A DNA stretch of 64,000 nucleotides from an uncultured Gammaproteobacteria bacterium (GTDB lineage Bacteria > Patescibacteriota > Patescibacteriia > UBA9934): positions 8,959 to 72,958 of the forward strand of contig CAZMTL010000004.1 of the NCBI GenBank assembly GCA_964569575.1, given 5' to 3'. Positions 8,004-54,681 of the stretch are shown in pieces (positions within the stretch are counted from its first letter, which is position 1; each line of letters opens with the position of its first letter). Below the pieces are notes generated by a model. The model was not told where the DNA came from. It saw only the letters and a program-made list of their open reading frames with translations, and made no database searches. The position numbers and the translations under genes were made by a program.

Positions 8004-8288
8004 CTACGAGTCAAACGTCTCGGTGCGAAGCTCCAACCCGTTCCAAACAGGCTGAAAGATCGCATCGTGATCATTTGATCCCTCGCGATAAACTCCAATC
8101 CGTTGACCTTCGGGAAGGATGATCAACAGCTGGCCCTTACGCGGATCGTAGCGAAGAACTACCAGGCCCTCCACTCCTGTCGACCGAATGATCGCTTCCA
8201 CCCGATCGAGCAGGTGAATGGCGGTACACTCGACACCGGCACGGAGTATGAAGCGGATCTCCCGCTGAACAGACTCTGTCAGACGCAC
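8004..8288 (-). CDS. hypothetical protein (94 aa), GC island A, second gene
   Basis: GTG start overlapping the upstream ORF stop by 10 nt (GAGTGCGTCTGA); GC-rich; no family recognised. Confidence 0.5.
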   Translation of the reverse strand: MRLTESVQREIRFILRAGVECTAIHLLDRVEAIIRSTGVEGLVVLRYDPRKGQLLIILPEGQRIGVYREGSNDHDAIFQPVWNGLELRTETFDS

Positions 8289-8545
8289 TCGCGGAACGTC
8301 GCCTCGTGCATCTGAAGGAACGACTCCAGCGGATCGGGGCTGACGGGCCGAATGGGCCGGCGCACCTTGGATCCATCGATCTCGACAACGATCTCGAACG
8401 ACTCGTCATCGAAGAACACCTCAGCCTCCAGACCGAGCTCGTAGAGAACCCGCTGGACGACGTCCTCGTCGAGCGAATCCTGCTCGAGCAGCTTCACGAT
8501 CACCACTCCAACATCGGCAGACGAACACACGCGCCTTGCGACCAT
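8279..8545 (-). CDS. acidic hypothetical protein (88 aa), GC island A, first gene
   Basis: AGGAGAGG SD four nt before ATG 8545; hand-counted GC3 71/88 (about 81%); no family recognised. Confidence 0.65.
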   Translation of the reverse strand: MVARRVCSSADVGVVIVKLLEQDSLDEDVVQRVLYELGLEAEVFFDDESFEIVVEIDGSKVRRPIRPVSPDPLESFLQMHEATFRECV

Positions 8546-38866: not shown

Positions 38867-38886
38867 TCGAACGCAAAGGAGGCGTG

Positions 38887-39444
38887 ATGCCTGACGACAT
38901 GGGACGACCAACCGCAGAGGAGATCCTGACGGATGGCGCGTACCTGAACGTGGACGCGGTACGTATGTACGAACTTCTCCAAAGGTGCATCGAGGAAACG
39001 GGAATGCTGCCTCAGTGGTACTTCGAGCACATGCCTCGAGTATTCCCTCAGGCCTGCATCGAACTGGCGGTCATGACCGTCCGATCCGGCAAGCGGCACA
39101 TCTTCCTGCTTCAACGACCAGACAACGATACGCACTGGCCGCGTCAGTGGCACATGCCCGGTACGACACTGTACCCAAAGGACAGCGAAGAAACGATGTG
39201 GAAACGGCTACTGGCATCCGAGCTCGGACAACTCCTCCGGCAAGAGATGTTCCGTCTCGCCTTCAACCACATCAGCACACGAGAAGAACGGGAACGCGGC
39301 GAGTGCATGCACGCCGTCTACACGGGACGCATCGGCACCGCATCGAAGAAGCTGGAACGCTTCGGAACCTTCTTTCCGGTCGATCAACTCCCGGAAGAAG
39401 TCATCCAACACCATCGAACCATACTCACCAGGCTCACCCACTAA
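38887..39444 (+). CDS. Nudix-fold-like protein with degenerate Nudix box, GC-rich copy (island B)
   Basis: AAGGAGG SD then ATG 38887; WHMPGTTLYPKDSEETMWKRLLASELG resembles a degenerate Nudix box; about 40% identity (hand alignment) to the adjacent 39510..40013 product. Confidence 0.7.
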   Translation: MPDDMGRPTAEEILTDGAYLNVDAVRMYELLQRCIEETGMLPQWYFEHMPRVFPQACIELAVMTVRSGKRHIFLLQRPDNDTHWPRQWHMPGTTLYPKDSEETMWKRLLASELGQLLRQEMFRLAFNHISTREERERGECMHAVYTGRIGTASKKLERFGTFFPVDQLPEEVIQHHRTILTRLTH

Positions 39445-39509: not shown

Positions 39510-40013
39510 ATGAAATCTATTGATCTATCAAACATCATTCTCTCGCTCGAAAAGTACAGCTCAGAAAACAACGGCCAAATCCCACGTGATTGGTTCGAAA
39601 AAATGCCCATCTACTTCCCTCAAGCGGCTATCGAGCTAGGGATCATTAAAGAGATCAATAACTCTCATCACATCTTCCTCGCTCAAAGGCCAGCAGACGA
39701 TCCATATTGGCCCAGCGAATGGCACCTTCCGGGCACAGTCCTCCGCCACACAGACACAGAAAAAACAATTTGGAAAAGACTACTTTCTGATGAAGTGGAT
39801 GGGATAATACAACCTTCCGAAGCAAAACTGATCGATACACACATTTCGAGCAAACAAGATCGCGAACGCGGCGCGTGCGTTCACTCAATCTATCTCGCAA
39901 AAACAAATAAAGACATCAAAAGTGGTAAATTCTTCCCGATCATCGATTTACCGAAAAATACAATCAAGCACCACCTGCCACTCATCGAAAAAATTAAAAA
40001 ATCCCTAAAATAA
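39510..40013 (+). CDS. Nudix-fold-like protein with degenerate Nudix box, AT-rich copy
   Basis: ATG 39510 lies inside track ORF 38985..40013; MKSIDLSN...WHLPGTVLRHTDTEKTIWKRLLSDEVDG; paralog of 38887..39444. Confidence 0.7.
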   Translation: MKSIDLSNIILSLEKYSSENNGQIPRDWFEKMPIYFPQAAIELGIIKEINNSHHIFLAQRPADDPYWPSEWHLPGTVLRHTDTEKTIWKRLLSDEVDGIIQPSEAKLIDTHISSKQDRERGACVHSIYLAKTNKDIKSGKFFPIIDLPKNTIKHHLPLIEKIKKSLK

Positions 40014-40479: not shown

Positions 40480-41814
40480 TCACCGCTTCTTTCGCTTAAT
40501 CCCACTCGACTTCGCTCGCACCTGCTTGTGGTACACCTGCGAAAAACGGTGGGCTTCGTCACGAACTTTTTGAAAAATCACCTTCCCCATCGCGCTTGCT
40601 TTTGCCAAATCTAAATTGGTTCGATCAAAAATCAACCGATCCTGCTTGCGATCAAATCCTTTTGCAATCCCAATAATCGGCACCTGTATTCCCAGTTCAT
40701 CCAAAACTGCCTGCACGCGATTCACTTGCGGCTTTCCGCCATCTATCACCATCACCTGCGGCAACTCCCAAGCATCCGGAAACTGCTGAGCCTTTCGCAA
40801 GCGTCGACGCAGTACCTCTTCCATCATCCCAACATCATTCGCACCAACCACAGTGCGAATTTTAAATTTACGATACTTCTCTTTCGCCGGTTGCCCGTCC
40901 ACAAATACCGTCATCACACCAACAGCGGACGTTCCAGAAATATTCGAGATGTCGTACGCCTCAATTCTACCGTCCAAATCAATCGCTGTTCGTTCCTTCT
41001 GCTTACTAAACGGCAATTCAATATCATCCTTGGTAATCAAAGCAACGTCTTTAATGTGCTCCAACGCAAAAATGGTATTCCGAAACTGAGCCGCGTCTTC
41101 ATAACGCCGTTCAACCGATGCTTGAGTCATTTTTTTATTCATCTCTCGAATCAACTGAGATTTCTTCCCTTCAAAAAATAAAATCAACTGATGAATAATC
41201 TGTTTATACTCTTTTGGTGAAATTTCACCCGTACACACGCCCGGGCAACGACGCAGATGCCGATTAAAACAGGGGCGCTTCCGACCAGTCACCGAAGGCG
41301 GTTCACAATCCGACCAAGGAATAATCTTTCGCAAAAAATCCAACGACTTTTTTAACGAATATCCACTGGTATAAGGACCAAATACACGCAAAAACTTCTT
41401 TTTTGCCTTTGCAGACAACGTTGCGTCAAAAGGGTTAATCTCCAAATTCTCTAAATCCAACCCCCTCAGCAATTTCGGCTTTGGGTATTCTTCATTGGTA
41501 ATAACAAGATACAAAAAACTCTTATCATCCCGCTGAAGAATATTATATTTCGGCTTCAACGCTTTGATTTTATTCGCTTCTAACACCAGCGCCTCAATAA
41601 CAGTAGGTGTCTCGATATAATCAATGCGCGCAATTTGCGACACCATTTCACCGATCCGATTATCGTGCGCCTTAGTAAAGTACGACCCAACACGACGCTT
41701 CAACGACGTCGCCTTGCCTACATACAACAAATTTCCCGCCAAATCATAATAAAAATACACCCCAGGTACATCGGGTAATTCATTATTTTTGATTGTAATT
41801 TCTGGCGAGATCAT
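40480..41814 (-). CDS. uvrC: excinuclease ABC subunit C (short form, no C-terminal HhH pair)
   Basis: GIY-YIG GVYFYYD...LLYVGKA, a UVR domain, and RNase H-like endonuclease region RIEAYDISN...; 444 aa. Confidence 0.9.
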   Translation of the reverse strand: MISPEITIKNNELPDVPGVYFYYDLAGNLLYVGKATSLKRRVGSYFTKAHDNRIGEMVSQIARIDYIETPTVIEALVLEANKIKALKPKYNILQRDDKSFLYLVITNEEYPKPKLLRGLDLENLEINPFDATLSAKAKKKFLRVFGPYTSGYSLKKSLDFLRKIIPWSDCEPPSVTGRKRPCFNRHLRRCPGVCTGEISPKEYKQIIHQLILFFEGKKSQLIREMNKKMTQASVERRYEDAAQFRNTIFALEHIKDVALITKDDIELPFSKQKERTAIDLDGRIEAYDISNISGTSAVGVMTVFVDGQPAKEKYRKFKIRTVVGANDVGMMEEVLRRRLRKAQQFPDAWELPQVMVIDGGKPQVNRVQAVLDELGIQVPIIGIAKGFDRKQDRLIFDRTNLDLAKASAMGKVIFQKVRDEAHRFSQVYHKQVRAKSSGIKRKKR

Positions 41815-41944
41815 GAAGTAAGTATAGCAAAATTATAACACCGAAAAGAACGGCTCCTAGATACACGATAAAGTCTCCATCCCTATTCCCTATCTTCCTA
41901 CCCCCTTCATCAAGGACAATCCAAAGTAAGCTACAGAATGCAAC

Positions 41945-44473
41945 CTACTTCACATTCTTCTTCCTCAAATAAGGCTTCAAATACTGTCCCGTATAACTCT
42001 TAGCCGAACGAGCAATATCCTCCGGAGTCCCTTCTGCAACAACCATTCCTCCACCAACTCCACCCTCTGGACCCATGTCGATTAACCAGTCAGCCGTTTT
42101 GATCACATCCAAATTGTGTTCAATGATCAAAACCGTATTTCCTTTCTCGACCAAACGATGCAACACCTCAAGTAATGTCTTAATATCTTCGAAGTGAAGT
42201 CCTGTCGTCGGCTCGTCGAGTAAATAAAGTGTTCGGCCCGTATTTCGCTTCGCAAGTTCAGAAGCCAACTTCACACGCTGAGCCTCACCACCCGAAAGCG
42301 TATTTGCAGACTGACCTAGCTTCAAATAACCAAGCCCAACGCTCACGAGTGTTACCAACTTATCGTGAACAGAAGGAATGTCCTTAAAAAACTCCGTTGC
42401 TTCCTCGATCGTCATCTCCAAAACTTGAAAAATATTCTTTTCTTTAAATTCAACCTCCAACGTTTCACGATTAAATCGTCGCCCTTTACACACATCACAC
42501 TGCACATACACCGTTGGCAAGAAATGCATTTCGATCGCAATTTCCCCATGCCCCTCACAATGATCACAACGTCCACCCGCCACGTTAAAGCTAAAACGAC
42601 CAGTTTTATATCCACGGAACTTCGCTTCATCCGTCGTAGCAAACAAATCACGAATCGGCGTCCAAGCTCCGGTATAAGTAGCTGGGTTAGATCTAGACGT
42701 TCGTCCAATCGGAGATTGATCCATCAAAATTGCCTTATCGATGTACTCAATGCCCAAAACAGATTTATGAGCACCAGGCTTCCCTTTGCTGCCGTACAAC
42801 TTTTTCGCAATCGCTTTGTAAGTCACTTCCAACATCAAGGTCGACTTCCCGCTTCCAGAAACACCTGTAATACAAACCATGCGTCGAAGCGGAATATCAA
42901 CATCTACATTCTTCAAATTGTTCTCGGTAGCTCCCCGAACCTTAATCGCATCCTTCCCAACCTTTCTGCGCTCGGTAGGAACCGGAATAACGCGATCACC
43001 CCGCAGATACGCCGCGGTCAGCGATTTCTTATCTTCAAAAATCTCGGGCGTTGGTCCGGCAGCAACAATCTCCCCTCCGTGCACACCAGCACTCGGTCCA
43101 ACCTCGACCATGTAATCCGATCGCCGAATGGTATCTTCGTCATGCTCTACAACCAACACGGTATTCCCCAAATCTCGCAACGATTCAAGCGTATTAATCA
43201 ACTGATCGTTATCACGTTGATGCAGACCAATCGTTGGTTCATCAAGTACATACAAAGCACCAACCAAACGCGAACCAATTTGCGAAGCTAAACGAATACG
43301 TTGCGCTTCACCCCCAGAAAGCGTCCCGGCCTTACGATCGAGCGTTAAATAATGCAACCCAACATCCAACATAAACGTCAATCGGCTTTCGATCTCTTTC
43401 AATACGGTTCCAGCAATTTCCAACCCACGCTCGTCTAACGCGATATGTAGAATGAAATCTGCGGCTTCCGAAATCGTTTTCGCTGTGTACTGAACAATAT
43501 TTTCACCACCAATAAGCACACTCAACGCCTCCTTGCGCAATCGCTTCCCATCACACGCGGGACAAATTTCTTCAGAGAAAAGCTCGAGCGTTCCTAACCC
43601 AGTACACGCTTCACAAGCTCCATAGGGACTATTGAACGAAAAAAGTCGTGGCTCGATTTCTGGAAACGAAAATCCACAATTTACACAACTAAATTTAGTA
43701 GAAAACAACCGCTCTTCCCCTGACGCGTACACCACATTCACCAAATCCTGTCCGCGATCAACCGCATTTTCGAGCGCTTCATTCAAGCGTTGACGCGTGT
43801 CCTTGTCCGGATCCTTTAGGCTAACCTGTGGAATAACATCGATAACCACTTCGATCGTATGCTGCTTATAGCGAGAAAGCTTAATTTCTTCACTCAAACG
43901 ATGCATCTTGCCATCTACCCGCACCTTTGCGAATCCTGAATTATACAAATCATACAATAACTGATAATAATTCCCCTTTCGACCACGAACAACCGGAGCC
44001 AAAATTTGAATTTCGCCAGAAGGAATCGCCTTTTCCTTTGCATTTTGCTTCATCAACAAATCAGAAATTTCATCAATCGTTAAACGCTCAATTCTCGATT
44101 TACAATCAGGACAATGCGCCTCACCAACACGCGCGTAAAGAACACGAAGGTAATCGTAAATTTCCGTCACCGTCGCCACAGTTGAACGCGGGTTTCGAGA
44201 ATGTGCTTTTTGATCAATCGAAATAGCTGGTGACAACCCTTCGATTTCGTCTACATCCGGCTTTTGCATCTGACCCAAAAATTGCCGTGCATAAGCAGAA
44301 AGCGATTCGATATAACGACGCTGCCCTTCCGCAAAAATCGTATCAAAAGCGAGGGAAGATTTTCCGCTTCCCGACACGCCAGTAAAACAAATAAGTTGAT
44401 TTCGAGGCAATTCGAGTGAAACATTTTTTAAGTTATGCTCACGCGCACCCTTGATTGTAATTTTTTCTTTCAT
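41945..44473 (-). CDS. uvrA: excinuclease ABC subunit A (842 aa)
   Basis: Starts [17 protein letters not shown]; two ABC ATPase modules ([18 protein letters not shown]) and LSGGEAQR signatures; the 142 upstream codons of the track ORF are read-through of GC-rich DNA. Confidence 0.95.
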
Positions 44474-44480
44474 ATATAAT
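44451..44480 (+). promoter_or_regulatory. candidate sigma70 promoter facing into GC island D (antisense to the uvrA start)
   Basis: TTGATT-N18-TATAAT on the plus strand; it overlaps the uvrA start codon region, so could be fortuitous AT-rich sequence. Confidence 0.4.
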
Positions 44481-45191
44481 TGTTGAGATGTTGATAGCGT
44501 TCTCGTGGTGAGATCGGCGTCGCATCGGCGAAAGGAGGCCCCCATGTCTCGTGGAGCAGTGAACGCTGGACGAACGCGTCCAGCCGAGACCACGCGTCGC
44601 CCGGCAATGCAGGTGCATTGCCGGGACCGATCGGGCGCACGACGCGCTTCGAACGGAGGTGAGCAGTCTCGATCCGTCGTGCCCGGCGTGACCACCTCCG
44701 GAAACGGAGACGGTCGAAGCCCGCGAGCGCGCGAACAGCGCTGCGGTGGTGGTGGGCTCGCGCCCATCCGAGGAGCTTCACCCGACGAAGAGTCCAGGTG
44801 CCCGGGGGCGTCGGAACGGGCGAACCCGGGCACGCCAACGCAGACACGAAGGCCAGCGTCCGGCCGAGGAGGTGAGGAGTCTCGATCCATCACGCCCAAC
44901 TACGCGAGCGATTCCGCAACCGGAAACGCTCGCGAACAGCTGTACTGTGGCAACGGGGGACTTTCCTCCACACCAGGATCTGGACACGACTACCGTGCAC
45001 CGGGCTTCGGAGGCAAGAAGCACATCAAGGACCCTCGAGGAAAGAAGCGCGGCGACAACCCGCGAGGAATTCCGCATCTCCCTCGACGAATTCGACTGCC
45101 CACGCACCCGGGCATGCAATGGACTCCGGCCAAGAAGCCTTAGCCGAACACAATTGACGTACAGACGAAACCCGCCAGGCGATCGTCATCT
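44481..45191. other. GC island D: hairpin-dense GC-rich element, coding status and strand unresolved
   Basis: 43/60 G+C in line 44581-44640; many perfect stems (see findings); all six frames are open over long stretches; no protein-like translation. Confidence 0.6.
44544..45143 (+). CDS. candidate R/G/S/P-rich basic repeat protein (199 aa), island D
   Basis: AAAGGAGG-N5-ATG, open to TAG 45141, terminator 50 nt downstream. Against it: low-complexity translation, and codon-position GC of about 72/73/58% in the first 60 codons. Confidence 0.3.
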
Positions 45192-45221
45192 GCCCTGCAA
45201 AAGCAGGGCCTTTCATTTTTT
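45192..45221 (+). terminator. intrinsic terminator (plus-strand sense), overlapping the uvrB stop
   Basis: GCCCTGC-aaaa-GCAGGGC followed by CTTTCATTTTTT; on the minus strand the same hairpin has no U-run. Confidence 0.55.
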
Positions 45222-47270
45222 AGAAGAACGTTTTTTCATCTTTTTTAACTCGGACTGCAATTCAATAATCTCATCTCGCAATATCCCTGCCGTTTCAAAC
45301 TGCAAATTAGCCGCTGCCAACTCCATCTCCTCTGTCTTCTCACGAATCACCTCTTCGATTTCGTGCGGCTCTGCAGCCAGTTCGATCTTCAAGATATTTT
45401 TCGTATCTTTCTTTTCACCCGGCTCTGCAACCCCCATGATTTCGCTGACATTTTGGATGGACTTAGTAATCGTAATCGGAGTAATTCCATGCTTTTCGTT
45501 GTGTGCCAGCTGAATCGTACGACGGCGATTGGTTTCATCGAGCGCTCGAGTGAGCGAACCGGTCATGCGATCCGCGTACAAGATCACTTCTCCATGGATA
45601 TTTCGTGCCGCTCGTCCAATGGTTTGAATCAACGACATTTCCGACCGCAGAAACCCTTCCTTGTCCGCGTCCAAAATAGCCACCAATGACACCTCCGGCA
45701 AATCCAGCCCTTCACGTAACAAGTTCACCCCAATAATAACGTCGTAAATCCCCTTGCGTAGATCGGTCAATATTTCGATACGCTCGATCGTTTTGATATC
45801 AGAATGGATATATTGAACCTTGATTCCCAGCTCTTTCAAATGCTCGGTCAAATCTTCAGCCATCTTTTTTGTAAGCGTTGTCACCAAACTTCGCTCACCT
45901 TTCGCTGTTCTATCTTGAATACGCGGAATCAAATCATCTACCTGACCTCGATGATCATCTGTTTCGGTCACCGGAAGTACAGTCACAATCGGGTCGACCA
46001 ATCCGGTCGGTCGTACGATCTGTTCAACAATTCGATCTGATGAATCATATTCTTGTTCACCGGGCGTTGCAGAGACATAAATCGTCTGCCCTACTCGTTC
46101 TTCGAATTCTTTTGATGTCAAAGGTCGATTGTCGCGAGCTGACGGCAGTCGGAACCCATGTTCTACCAAATTATCTTTCCGCGCCTTATCGCCAGCAAAC
46201 ATTCCACGAATCTGAGGAATAGTCACATGAGATTCGTCGATAACCGTCAGAAAATCCTTGGGAAAATAGGCAAGCAATGTATCCGGTGGTTCACCAGCAT
46301 TTCTGCCATCAAAATGCCGAGAGTAGTTTTCGATCCCATTACAGTAGCCAATACTCTTCATCATTTCGATATCGTACTTGGTTCGTCGCTGCAAACGTTC
46401 GTATTCAAGCAACTTTTCCTCCTGCTTAAATTCCGCTAACCGCATTGCAAGTTCATCTTCGATTTGCCGAACCGCCCTTTCCGTATGTTCCGCGCCAACA
46501 ACATAATGTTTCGCGGGAAACAGCCAAAAATCCTGCACGCGATCTTTCACTCGCCGAGTAACGGGATCGAGAATAAAAATCTCGCGCAAAACACCATCTT
46601 CAATCACCAACCGATACAACGAAGTCTTCTCGTTCGCATCCCCGCTTCCAGAACGCCCAGACATCGGCATAATCTCGATCACGTCCCCCATCGCTCTAAA
46701 CTGTCCACGCTCTACATCCGCATTCGTTCGCTCAAAATACATTTCGATCAATCGTCTAATCAGTTCCGAACGATCCGCAACCTGTCCCGCCTTCAAGTTC
46801 ATCACCGTTTTAGAATATTCCTTCGGCGAACCTAATCCATAAATGCACGAAACCGAAGCAACGATAATCACATCCTGCCGGCTCAATAACGCCTGAGTCG
46901 CCGCATGTCGCAAACGATCGATCTCTTCATTAATCTGAGCTTCTTTTTCGATATACGTATCGGAACGGGCAATGTAAGCCTCTGGCTGATAATAATCGTA
47001 ATAACTCACAAAGTACTCAACCGCATTTTCGGGGAAAAACTGTCTAAATTCATTACAAAGCTGAGCTGCCAACGTTTTATTATGAGCAATCACAAGCGTT
47101 GGTCGCTGGACCTGCTGAATCACATTCGCAATCGTAAACGTCTTTCCAGAACCAGTAACACCAAGCAACGTCTGGCGATCCAGTCCAGTTTGAAGACCAT
47201 CAACCAACCCCGCAATTGCCTTGGGTTGATCGCCAGCCGGTTTGTATTTTGATTGTAGGTTAAATTTCAT
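45213..47270 (-). CDS. uvrB: excinuclease ABC subunit B
   Basis: LLGVTGSGKTF Walker A, DESH box, helicase motifs, C-terminal UVR domain (LAAANLQFETAGILRDEI); ends in TGA. Confidence 0.97.
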   Translation of the reverse strand: MKFNLQSKYKPAGDQPKAIAGLVDGLQTGLDRQTLLGVTGSGKTFTIANVIQQVQRPTLVIAHNKTLAAQLCNEFRQFFPENAVEYFVSYYDYYQPEAYIARSDTYIEKEAQINEEIDRLRHAATQALLSRQDVIIVASVSCIYGLGSPKEYSKTVMNLKAGQVADRSELIRRLIEMYFERTNADVERGQFRAMGDVIEIMPMSGRSGSGDANEKTSLYRLVIEDGVLREIFILDPVTRRVKDRVQDFWLFPAKHYVVGAEHTERAVRQIEDELAMRLAEFKQEEKLLEYERLQRRTKYDIEMMKSIGYCNGIENYSRHFDGRNAGEPPDTLLAYFPKDFLTVIDESHVTIPQIRGMFAGDKARKDNLVEHGFRLPSARDNRPLTSKEFEERVGQTIYVSATPGEQEYDSSDRIVEQIVRPTGLVDPIVTVLPVTETDDHRGQVDDLIPRIQDRTAKGERSLVTTLTKKMAEDLTEHLKELGIKVQYIHSDIKTIERIEILTDLRKGIYDVIIGVNLLREGLDLPEVSLVAILDADKEGFLRSEMSLIQTIGRAARNIHGEVILYADRMTGSLTRALDETNRRRTIQLAHNEKHGITPITITKSIQNVSEIMGVAEPGEKKDTKNILKIELAAEPHEIEEVIREKTEEMELAAANLQFETAGILRDEIIELQSELKKMKKRSSKK

Positions 47271-47435
47271 AACAAAATTGCCCGACTCCACGCTCTACTA
47301 CAAAGTAGATGACGCTTTTGGGATCGGGATCGTTCGTAAATTGTAAAACCAGCATAGCACACTTAAAGAAGAAAACAAAAACGCGCCCCTTCTTGCAAAG
47401 TGAGCGCGCAGCATGCAGTGAAGCATGAATTCCTC

Positions 47436-47645
47436 CTATTCGTCTTCGGTAGTGTGGCGACGATTACCACGAGTGGTGCGGACGTATCCGCGTTTAGAGT
47501 GATACCCGCCGCCATTACGACGGCGAAGTGCCACCAGATCGGTACGCCGACCCTGCGGAAGCACGACAACGATCCGAAGATCATCCTCGCGCTTCTGTTC
47601 CTTGGTCCTACCAACAGGCTTCGAAGCCTTCCGCTTCTTCGCCAT
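47436..47645 (-). CDS. hyper-basic small protein (69 aa), GC island E, second gene
   Basis: AGGAGGTGAGAG directly before ATG 47645; MAKKRKASKPVGRTKEQKRE...RRRNGGGYHSKRGYVRTTRGNRRH; GC-rich stem plus U-run downstream. Confidence 0.6.
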   Translation of the reverse strand: MAKKRKASKPVGRTKEQKREDDLRIVVVLPQGRRTDLVALRRRNGGGYHSKRGYVRTTRGNRRHTTEDE

Positions 47646-47662
47646 CTCTCACCTCCTGGTGC

Positions 47663-47872
47663 TCACAACCACGTGAGCACGTACATCTTCACGCGATGAA
47701 ATGCGCTCGAGCGCACCACCGAGTGGACCACCTCCGGAAGCTGAGGCTCCCAGTACAGGGAGTTGAGCTTGCCAGTGAGCTCGACCGTCCCTTCCAGGAA
47801 CGACCGAACCCGACCGGGCTTGAGATCGAACTTCTCGAGAATGAATCCCGAGATCAAACCCCATAGAATCAT
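47663..47872 (-). CDS. small protein with hydrophobic N-terminus (69 aa), GC island E, first gene
   Basis: GGAGGG four nt before ATG 47872; MILWGLISGFILEKF...; its stop is 15 nt before the next gene's SD. Confidence 0.55.
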   Translation of the reverse strand: MILWGLISGFILEKFDLKPGRVRSFLEGTVELTGKLNSLYWEPQLPEVVHSVVRSSAFHRVKMYVLTWL

Positions 47873-53839: not shown

Positions 53840-53870
53840 AAACAAAGACCCCGTACACGTGTACGAGGTC
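53838..53870 (-). terminator. intrinsic terminator of GC island F
   Basis: Minus strand GACCUCGUAC..GUACGGGGUC stem with one G:U pair, followed by UUUGUUUUU. Confidence 0.55.
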
Positions 53871-53895
53871 CGAGTGACGCCTCAGGTTGAAGCGA

Positions 53896-54681
53896 TCACG
53901 AGTCCGGGCTAGAGGTTCGCGGAAGTCCTGCTGACAGACGGGTCATTACCTCGGGAGGAAACGAAGCTGGCTGATCGAGCCTCATACCTCCTCCGCCGGC
54001 GGTGATACGAAGCCTACCAAGCCGCAACAGACGCAACTCCCGTCGAGCGAGCGCCACCAGACGAACACCGTCTTCCAGATACCCTTCGTAGCGACGAATG
54101 GTGCCTTCGAGCGAAATTCCTTGACGAAGGCACTCAACCACCCATTCTGCGCAGATTGACGGAGGCAGCCGAGGAACACGCGTGAAGAATTCTACGACCT
54201 TCGACCAGTCCATCAGATGTTCCTGGAAGTGCTGCTGCACATGTTCCGGAACCTCCAACAAGGCCGATCGACGAGCGCAGACAGCTGAGACGATGGACCG
54301 GTTGAGCAGATCTTTATCAGCGGTATTCTGACCTGCTCGACACAGCGCATCGATGATCTTCTTCACATACCCAGGCAATTCGCCAGGGTACTTCTTGTGC
54401 ACCCCTGATTCCGCAAGCGCACTCAGAACTGCATAACGCGTCTCCTGACACGGAAGCAGCTTCTCCCACCTACGTACCGCCGAAAGCACCGCACGTCGTG
54501 GAAGCATCGGCAAGTCACACTGTACTGCTCGGGCATGCGCGACAATCACGTCGATGACGTCCACTTCTTCACGCGTCAAAAACCACTTGGTCGACACATA
54601 ACGACGCGCCGAGCGCGCATATTGATCGAGAGCCTCCTTGGCCAGTTGTTCAAGGTTGATCGAAACATCAATCCACTGCAT
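53896..54681 (-). CDS. hypothetical alpha-helical protein (261 aa), GC island F
   Basis: GAGGAG SD nine nt before ATG 54681; GC-rich; no family recognised. Confidence 0.55.
   Translation of the reverse strand: MQWIDVSINLEQLAKEALDQYARSARRYVSTKWFLTREEVDVIDVIVAHARAVQCDLPMLPRRAVLSAVRRWEKLLPCQETRYAVLSALAESGVHKKYPGELPGYVKKIIDALCRAGQNTADKDLLNRSIVSAVCARRSALLEVPEHVQQHFQEHLMDWSKVVEFFTRVPRLPPSICAEWVVECLRQGISLEGTIRRYEGYLEDGVRLVALARRELRLLRLGRLRITAGGGGMRLDQPASFPPEVMTRLSAGLPRTSSPDS

Follow-up and report, generated by a model that had tools for sequence, protein, structure and literature searches.

Introduction

In-frame repeats that arise from slippage or unequal recombination are an ordinary route by which proteins are elongated. 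Long GC-rich intergenic regions, in turn, are where the GC-IGR pipeline places the small open reading frame (ORF) candidates of its 'sORF' category (Nucleic Acids Res 2024, PMC11109978). The locus considered here touches on both. It is a GC-rich island, island D, lying between uvrB and uvrA in a 64,000-nucleotide (nt) stretch of DNA, referred to below as the window. Judged by its UvrB and UvrA sequences, the host belongs among Uhrbacteria- or Magasanikbacteria-like Patescibacteria, within the Candidate Phyla Radiation (CPR). The GC-IGR sORF category is the closest described kind, and the likeness lies in the island being a long GC-rich intergenic region with the look of a non-coding RNA (ncRNA) candidate.

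Island D measures 725 nt (44476-45200), has a GC content of 64% in a genome of 46%, and exactly fills the gap between the start of uvrA and the stop of uvrB. A first-pass annotation had noticed an internal duplication in the island with copy offsets in multiples of three, and had taken this to favour coding over RNA. With good confidence, island D can be read from its sequence as a protein-coding gene that runs opposite to uvrB and uvrA and contains an in-frame tandem duplication.

A Tandem Repeat in One Reading Frame

The ORF and the parts of the repeat are as follows.

44544-45143, plus strand: ORF of 199 codons and a stop codon, with both repeat modules in one frame
44655-44867, plus strand: repeat copy 1, 71 codons, seen by repeat search and by nucleotide and protein alignment
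44868 to about 45065, plus strand: repeat copy 2, alignable with copy 1 to about 45050 and then passing into a basic C-terminal tail
44655-44675, plus strand: 21-nt head of copy 1, GGAGGTGAGCAGTCTCGATCC, similar to a Shine-Dalgarno (SD) sequence (GGAGGT) and resembling the SD sequences of relatives
44868-44888, plus strand: 21-nt head of copy 2, GGAGGTGAGGAGTCTCGATCC, identical to the first head at 20 of 21 bases, all seven wobble positions included
44742-44765, plus strand: family motif of copy 1, C-G-G-G-G-L-A-P (TGC GGT GGT GGT GGG CTC GCG CCC)
44946-44969, plus strand: family motif of copy 2, C-G-N-G-G-L-S-S (TGT GGC AAC GGG GGA CTT TCC TCC)

The copies stand head to tail with a period of 213 nt, or 71 codons, and copy 2 begins exactly 213 nt after copy 1. 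Their similarity is 6-8 standard deviations above that of shuffled sequences at both levels: the local nucleotide alignment scores 41 against 19.7 +/- 2.6 (maximum 33), and the protein alignment of the two ORF halves scores 89 against 39 +/- 7.4 (maximum 67). When the 21-nt head was sought on both strands of the 64 kb with up to three mismatches, there were two matches, against 0.00 expected from 100 shuffles; an exact scan of metagenome and viral contigs for the 21-mer gave none. The repeat escapes Tandem Repeats Finder, its copies having diverged too far.

Sequence, repeat search and DNA search agree on the leading match of the first-pass annotation, GGAGGTGAG[C/G]AGTCTCGATCC at 44655-44675 and 44868-44888 (offset 213). 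Its two shorter words are also where it had placed them, CCGGAAACG at 44698 and 44920 (offset 222) and CGCGAACAGC at 44730 and 44931 (offset 201), and both of its plus-frame translations are correct. The GGAGGTG of copy 1 (44655-61) has the reported CACCTCC partner at 44693-99, and copy 2 has only CCTCC at 44964-68. The boundaries and the alignment call for revision. Similarity does not stop at 44945 and runs well past it, reaching about 44852 in copy 1 and about 45050 in copy 2. As a homologous anchor, CCGGAAACG at offset 222 probably mispairs the 5' arm and loop of a hairpin with its 3' arm. A better alignment has offsets of 213, 216 and 201 and pairs TSGNGDGR with DSATGNAR; the indels are still multiples of three, with sizes of +3 and -15 in place of the 9 and 21 nt first proposed.

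Is the repeat held at the level of protein or of nucleic acid? At the five conserved codons of the motif (C/G/G/G/L), all five wobble bases differ between the copies, against none of the ten first and second bases. Ever since the duplication, selection on the protein has therefore acted on the motif in both copies. By contrast with the saturated wobble positions of G-x-G-G-L, those of the 21-nt head have all been kept, so that the identity of the heads reflects either a nucleotide-level constraint or a recent, short gene-conversion tract. Outside the motif, copy 1 also has C-P, and copy 2 has D-Y...F-G-G-K-K followed by the basic tail.

Homologues in Related Genomes

Loci containing uvrB and uvrA were fetched from genomes and metagenomes, together with the contigs of the closest UvrA homologues (77-85% identical), and are denoted by L-numbers. 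An SD-led small ORF of 51-162 amino acids is present at the same site and on the same strand in 11 relatives (L083, L084, L086, L162, L163, L164, L166, L167, L168, L169 and L170), in which UvrA is 73-85% identical, the closest being at 85%, and the spacer is 364-600 nt long. An SD-like purine block precedes the ATG or GTG in 12 of 12 units, at 4-7 nt in most and longer or weaker in L163 and L170. A hairpin and T-run terminator can be read at the same place in most relatives. Five related genomes (L001, L002, L082, L165 and the P0006 locus) lack the small gene, and in these uvrB and uvrA are 1-132 nt apart, the distance being about 35 nt in L001 and L002.

The products follow a common pattern, [C/L/F]-G-x-G-G-L-[S/A]-P, often with C-P and mostly with D-W-G-W-P or W-W-P, and then a basic Lys/Arg tail. 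Aligning the family shows conservation of G-x-G-G (G-x-D-G in L169) and of a Pro further downstream. Five of the small-ORF products illustrate the pattern.

L162: MTTPLKLGAGGLSPVPFVPWKCPAPVSDWGWPKRER...
L163: MTTDYVLGSGGLAPVDNPPTSIKDWGWPPKKRRRR...
L164: (GTG)TTHICGVGGLAS...VKDWGWQRKP...
L168: MRHCGYGGLSPLSHVPMFFPVPVTSWGWRRRKPRR...
L166: ...HREQEPLRKTGGGGLSPHGQ...EPWWPKERRRR...

Each relative has a single G-x-G-G-L (11/11), against two in the window. A hidden Markov model (HMM) built from the 11 relatives alone and run against the 1819 six-frame fragments of the window puts the island ORF first, at E = 0.0024, with the next fragment at 0.52; module 1 scores 15.1 bits and module 2 scores 5.8 bits. 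When the six-frame translations of 167 loci (L001-L167) were scanned with a regular expression, the motif was found almost only at this site.

Homology is visible at the protein level only. Nothing could be learned from aligning the window copies directly, as DNA, with the spacers of L083 and L084, and blastn and nhmmer searches with the island against 160 syntenic loci gave nothing. Profile searches of Pfam, NCBIfam, PHROG and PDB returned no significant match, only isolated sub-threshold matches to single members, and a search with the L083 ORF as query gave no shared words. Two members have been predicted by gene callers; both are singletons, and the one named by NCBI is a 'hypothetical protein'. 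No description of a small gene in the uvrB-uvrA spacer was found in the literature.

The closest metagenome relative (L086:3401-4000, UvrA 78%) carries a 162-amino-acid member that is not GC-rich. It has FGYGGLRAP at its N-terminus and then a long C-terminal extension with no Pfam match; thus, sequence of another kind can be joined to the N-terminal motif.

Codon-Level Evidence

Across genomes, the conserved Gly codons are invariant at bases 1 and 2 and have A, C, G or T at the wobble position; Leu is encoded by TTG or CTN and Ser by TCN or AGY. In the relatives, G-x-G-G-L and W(G)W are separated by 51, 63, 69, 72, 111 or 150 nt, each a multiple of three. Frame +0 contains no stops in any unit, giving ORFs of 51-199 amino acids, and the other frames have stops in most. 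The mean pairwise BLOSUM score is 47 in the coding frame and 27-34 in the other five. Synonymous differences outnumber nonsynonymous ones (pS > pN) in nearly all pairs, in alignments that were built at the protein level and are biased to that extent.

Nucleotide comparison leads back to the same frame. All-against-all blastn of the first nine units yields only in-frame codon blocks, for example GACTGGGGCTGGCC, which encodes DWGW; no nucleotide blocks outside the frame and no covarying helices common to the homologues were found. The homologue comparison that the first-pass annotation had proposed, of indel lengths and substitution phase, thus yields in-frame indels and synonymous changes, with no covarying helices between homologues. 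Its preference for coding over RNA is borne out by the synonymous-only codon pattern of the homologues, their in-frame spacings and their frame-specific similarity. This settles the question of coding versus RNA for a conspicuous GC-rich island, which is an unannotated, fast-evolving small-protein gene.

Three further candidate signals were considered and rejected. The word CGAACAGC, shared with L083 in a different frame, had seemed a hint of nucleotide conservation; L166 has R-E-Q in frame, and the word is absent from all other units. TCGATC(C), considered as a possible conserved element, turned up in no more than 4 of the 12 units, and its positions in these do not agree. A zinc or disulfide site formed by the two Cys residues was dismissed as Cys is not conserved, L163 having none.

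Genomic Setting, Expression Signals and Predicted Product

The flanking genes and the candidate signals of the small gene are listed here.

41945-44473, minus strand: uvrA (context), start codon 44473-44471
45213-47291, minus strand: uvrB (context), stop codon 45215-45213
44451-44480, plus strand: promoter-like TTGATT-18 nt-TATAAT, overlapping the opposite-strand uvrA start codon, 10/12 consensus matches
44531-44538, plus strand: strong SD sequence, AAAGGAGG, 5 nt upstream of the ATG at 44544
45192-45221, plus strand: intrinsic terminator GCCCTGC-AAAA-GCAGGGC with a T-run, the hairpin at 45192-45209 and the T-run overlapping the last uvrB codons

The site at 44451-44480 is the sole promoter-like site within 44200-45500 and is the putative promoter of the small gene; translation would begin at the ATG at 44544. 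Boxes resembling a -10 element lie within 25 nt of the uvrA start in L162, L163, L167 and L086, with a weaker TAAACT nearby in L169. A conserved operator or -10 box in the AT-rich stretch adjoining uvrA was considered and set aside, such an element being there only in part. The terminator is one-directional and does not act as one on the minus strand.

How, then, is uvrA expressed? Upstream of it (44474-44500, minus strand) there is no recognisable SD sequence in the window, nor is there one in L001 and L002, and no minus-strand promoter-like site was found inside island D. Therefore, on these sequence features, expression of uvrA may come from read-through that starts in uvrB and runs antisense to the small gene. 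The small protein itself is possibly linked to uvrA only through this overlapping, divergent and antisense arrangement, a link of position only.

The spacer can hold other cargo. In L085 (3259-4039) it contains an ORF that looks GIY-YIG-like by eye (YVYILTNERGNVMYVGVTNDLLRRVREHR...) and is flanked by several copies of a GC-rich repeat of about 100 nt (GAGGTCCTTCCCCTTCGGATGCCTCAGGGTCAGGAAAGCGCG...). The uvrB-uvrA spacer seems to be an insertion hot spot in the clade.

Might island D itself have come in from elsewhere, as a mobile element or other foreign DNA placed between uvrB and uvrA, or be a chimera of the assembly? The sharp jump in GC, the closeness of the two genes in L001 and L002 and the different cargo in L085 would fit such an origin. 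However, L081, an assembly made independently in Logan, matches window positions 41560-45025 at 100% identity; these span the uvrA-island junction, which is therefore not an assembly artefact. An identical locus is present in SRR15237806. Homologous genes also occupy the same site in the same orientation in the 11 related genomes. The island has no terminal inverted repeats, flanking direct repeats, target-site duplication or mobility gene, and a Pfam scan of its ORFs found no transposase or integrase domain. A foreign or chimeric origin is extremely improbable.

The predicted product of 199 amino acids is rich in Gly, Arg, Pro, Ser and Ala, with an isoelectric point of 11.4 and a grand average of hydropathy of -1.2. 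A single-sequence AlphaFold2 model has a mean predicted local distance difference test score of 49.5 and contains no helix of four or more residues and no strand of three or more. The protein is probably disordered, a conclusion with which the model is compatible, as weak evidence. As a low-confidence guess, it could be a small, cytoplasmic, disordered protein that binds nucleic acid or a partner.

A Functional Gene or a Relic?

Several observations weigh against a protein-coding gene in the window. Its ORF has no match among 5.8 billion proteins in a word-indexed search or among 1.84 billion representatives in an exhaustive phmmer search, because the family is too short, too diverged and mostly uncalled; gene finders have left most of the relatives' ORFs uncalled as well. 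GC content is flat over the three codon positions (GC1/2/3 of 0.67 / 0.675 / 0.625, against 0.55 / 0.39 / 0.42 in uvrA). The host-like codon-position periodicity is absent from the window ORF and from those of the relatives, which have atypically high GC at all positions. At the composition of the island, a 199-codon open frame would arise by chance with P of about 0.06, so that its openness alone is weak evidence. The window protein lacks W-G-W, its best counterpart being the D-Y...F-G-G-K-K of copy 2, and a ratio of nonsynonymous to synonymous substitution (dN/dS) of about 0.7 between the copies indicates weak constraint outside the motif. Moreover, a coding role by itself leaves unaccounted for the high GC content of the whole unit and its stable folding, which are described in the next section.

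One way to accommodate part of this is that the family codes for protein and the window gene, having lost its function after the duplication, is a relic in decay or under relaxed constraint, with a frame that is open by chance. The loss of W-G-W, the dN/dS value, the flat GC profile and the roughly 6% chance of an open frame would all fit a relic. The N-terminal extension, which is specific to the window, is also unusual and full of perfect hairpins, two of which are given here.

44565-84, plus strand: perfect hairpin GCUGGACG-AACG-CGUCCAGC in the window-specific N-terminal extension
44600-25, plus strand: perfect hairpin CCCGGCAAUGCA-GG-UGCAUUGCCGGG in the window-specific N-terminal extension

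A relic does not account for C-G-x-G-G-L being kept in both copies: the contrast between wobble and other positions calls for prolonged purifying selection once the duplication had occurred. In the same frame there are a strong SD sequence and an ATG, and the promoter-like site and the terminator are intact. Decay of the window copy is an unlikely reading, and the preferred one remains a gene that is maintained for its protein.

RNA Structure and a Possible Second Role

Each repeat copy contains a two-tier hairpin.

44690-44715, plus strand: two-tier hairpin of copy 1, GACC-AC-CUCCG-GAAA-CGGAG-AC-GGUC, seen in the sequence and in the minimum free energy (MFE) fold
44903-44934, plus strand: equivalent hairpin of copy 2, CGCGAGCG-A-UUCCG-CAAC-CGGAA-A-CGCUCGCG, at an offset of 216, with 14-nt arms that are 93% complementary

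Between the two there is one compensatory change, C-G to U-A, which is too little to count as covariation. The island folds below shuffled sequences on both strands (z = -4.4 and -3.9), a property that is not specific to ncRNA. In the relatives, z is -8.2 for L083, -2.7 for L168 and -1.7 for L164, values that, like the -4.4 of the window, include the terminator hairpins. The fold of L083 is much stronger than those of the other members; its small-gene transcript (L083:3612-3980, minus strand) reaches an MFE of -164.7 kcal/mol where shuffles give -123.6 +/- 5, and long-range stems extend across its ORF.

Such features invite the idea that island D is a large structured ncRNA with a duplicated domain and owes its ORF to high GC. 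The elevated GC content of the island, its plus-strand z-score, its several perfect hairpins and the compensatory pair fit this idea, and so do the flat codon-position profile and the failure of sequence searches to find a protein homologue of the window ORF. Yet Rfam at gathering thresholds finds only two tRNAs in the window, both outside the island, and even at E <= 10 the best match in the island reaches 20.5 bits against a gathering score of 40. All that the homologues have in common is a motif of amino acids, variable at its wobble positions and with indels that keep the frame; they share no nucleotide blocks or helices. An SD sequence and a start codon recur in every unit, and folding is inconsistent among relatives. 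The codon-level pattern had already largely refuted a purely non-coding island, which is very improbable, and for the family an ncRNA is essentially excluded. A GC-rich and well-folding intergenic region is thus insufficient evidence for ncRNA.

Why, then, is the unit so GC-rich? In most genomes the whole of it, that is, the 5' untranslated region (UTR), all three codon positions and the 3' UTR, lies above the GC content of host genes, and the UTRs and third positions (GC3) exceed host values by 5-20 points. The GC3 of the ORF exceeds that of uvrA in L164 (0.78 against 0.45) and in the window (0.62 against 0.42). Gly, Pro, Arg and Ala make up about 45-50% of the residues, and amino-acid composition therefore explains GC1 and GC2 only. 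The 21-nt heads and one hairpin look nucleotide-constrained, and an additional role at the RNA level is conceivable.

It is conceivable that the unit has a dual function, coding for a small protein while its folded, GC-rich transcript also acts as RNA, either as an excludon-like cis-antisense or roadblock or through a site in the 21-nt head. In favour of this are the excess of GC in UTRs and third positions, the negative z-scores, the retention of the hairpin in both copies, and a head kept at seven of seven wobble positions when those of the motif are saturated. The geometry is also suitable: the transcript is complementary to the entire uvrB-uvrA spacer and fully antisense to any read-through from uvrB to uvrA, the terminator is unidirectional, and the promoter-like site overlaps the uvrA start. 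Against it, there is no nucleotide-level conservation between genomes, and the head is equally explicable as a short gene-conversion tract. Sequestration of the SD sequence by a hairpin is clear in L168, L162 and L167 and absent in the other units. Moreover, the five related genomes that lack the small gene show that it is dispensable for uvrBA expression.

A dual function is unlikely on balance. Its more specific form, in which the transcript would act in cis against uvrB-to-uvrA read-through by antisense pairing or transcriptional collision, and the head would be an RNA site, for example for ribosome stand-by or anti-SD pairing, is improbable too. If that form were true, the unit would be a lineage-specific switch on the expression of nucleotide-excision repair in CPR bacteria. 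The GC enrichment of the unit and its antisense position in the uvrBA pair are of potential interest for CPR gene regulation and do not overturn current understanding.

Proposed History of the Window Gene

The preferred reading, a protein-coding gene with an in-frame duplication, suggests the following history. A clade of Uhrbacteria-like Patescibacteria would carry, antisense in the spacer between uvrB and uvrA, a short gene that is transcribed on its own, with a -10 box next to the uvrA start, an SD sequence, a start codon and an intrinsic terminator. Its product would be small (about 50-95 amino acids), basic, rich in Gly and Pro, and probably disordered.

In the lineage of the window, a segment of 213 nt, reaching from the ancestral SD sequence through about 60 codons, would then have been duplicated head to tail, probably by replication slippage or unequal recombination. 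The 213 nt equal 71 x 3, and subsequent indels also come in whole codons, so that a single frame runs through both modules. The start of copy 2 would have been lost and the frame extended upstream to the new SD sequence and the ATG at 44544, so that a protein of about 55 amino acids may have become a two-module protein of 199. Selection at the protein level would have preserved G-x-G-G-L in the two modules as all of its wobble bases changed.

The heads of the copies bear on where the duplicated unit began. Their GGAGGT... resembles the ribosome-binding sites of relatives, such as GGAGGTCATCATG in L162, GGAGGTTATCATG in L167 and GGAGGTCGCATG in L169, and copy 1 has GTG-ACC-ACC (V-T-T) where relatives start with M-T-T. 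The former SD sequence would now be translated as Gly-Gly-Glu. The window gene would then be a small example of micro-protein growth, in which an in-frame duplication has swallowed its own ribosome-binding site.

Other Features of the Window

A pair of plus-strand genes at 38884-39444 and 39510-40013 are tandem paralogues, 41% identical over 148 amino acids (E = 2e-47). The first is about 59% GC, forms part of a GC island at 39027-39370 and has a weak Pfam match to NUDIX; the second has a clearly lower GC content and no Pfam match. The pair, whose members differ in base composition, seems to stem from duplication or from re-acquisition.

Other GC-rich islands, of about 59-61% GC, overlap minus-strand ORFs with no Pfam match.

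8156-8496: overlaps minus-strand ORFs 8004-8288 and 8279-8545, of 94 and 88 amino acids, which overlap each other by 10 nt
47640-47856: overlaps minus-strand ORF 47436-47645, 69 amino acids, very basic, just upstream of uvrB
53847-54117: overlaps minus-strand ORF 53896-54681, 261 amino acids

Comparison with Known Systems

Peptides rich in Trp, Pro and Arg include indolicidin and tritrpticin. The P-W-W-P or D-W-G-W-P of the relatives, with their runs of Arg and Lys, are alike, a resemblance of composition only. The differences are the absence of a signal peptide and of nearby processing or export genes, and the loss of the Trp motif from the window protein. Analogies with double-glycine bacteriocin leaders and Trp/Arg antimicrobial peptides were set aside, there being no supporting neighbour genes.

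Dual-function RNAs and cis-antisense excludons are represented by SgrS/SgrT, RNAIII/hld and the excludons of Listeria. By analogy only, the small gene resembles them in having a strongly structured mRNA for a small protein that is fully complementary to the transcript of the neighbouring operon. It differs from them in its lack of nucleotide-level conservation.

The GC-IGR sORFs (PMC11109978) remain the nearest in kind. Island D stands apart from them in coming from a CPR lineage, in matching no described family and in its internal duplication of 71 codons. A further difference is its position, antisense inside a uvrB-uvrA pair that is tight in sister genomes.

With internal tandem duplications at large, the window gene shares head-to-tail copies, a period and indels in multiples of three, and a short motif retained despite divergence. 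It differs in that the unit seems to start at an ancestral ribosome-binding site and that the head is far better conserved than the rest. The small gene is a previously undescribed, lineage-specific small-protein gene with an internal tandem duplication, and one of at least 12 homologues in Patescibacteria genomes that gene callers have mostly missed.

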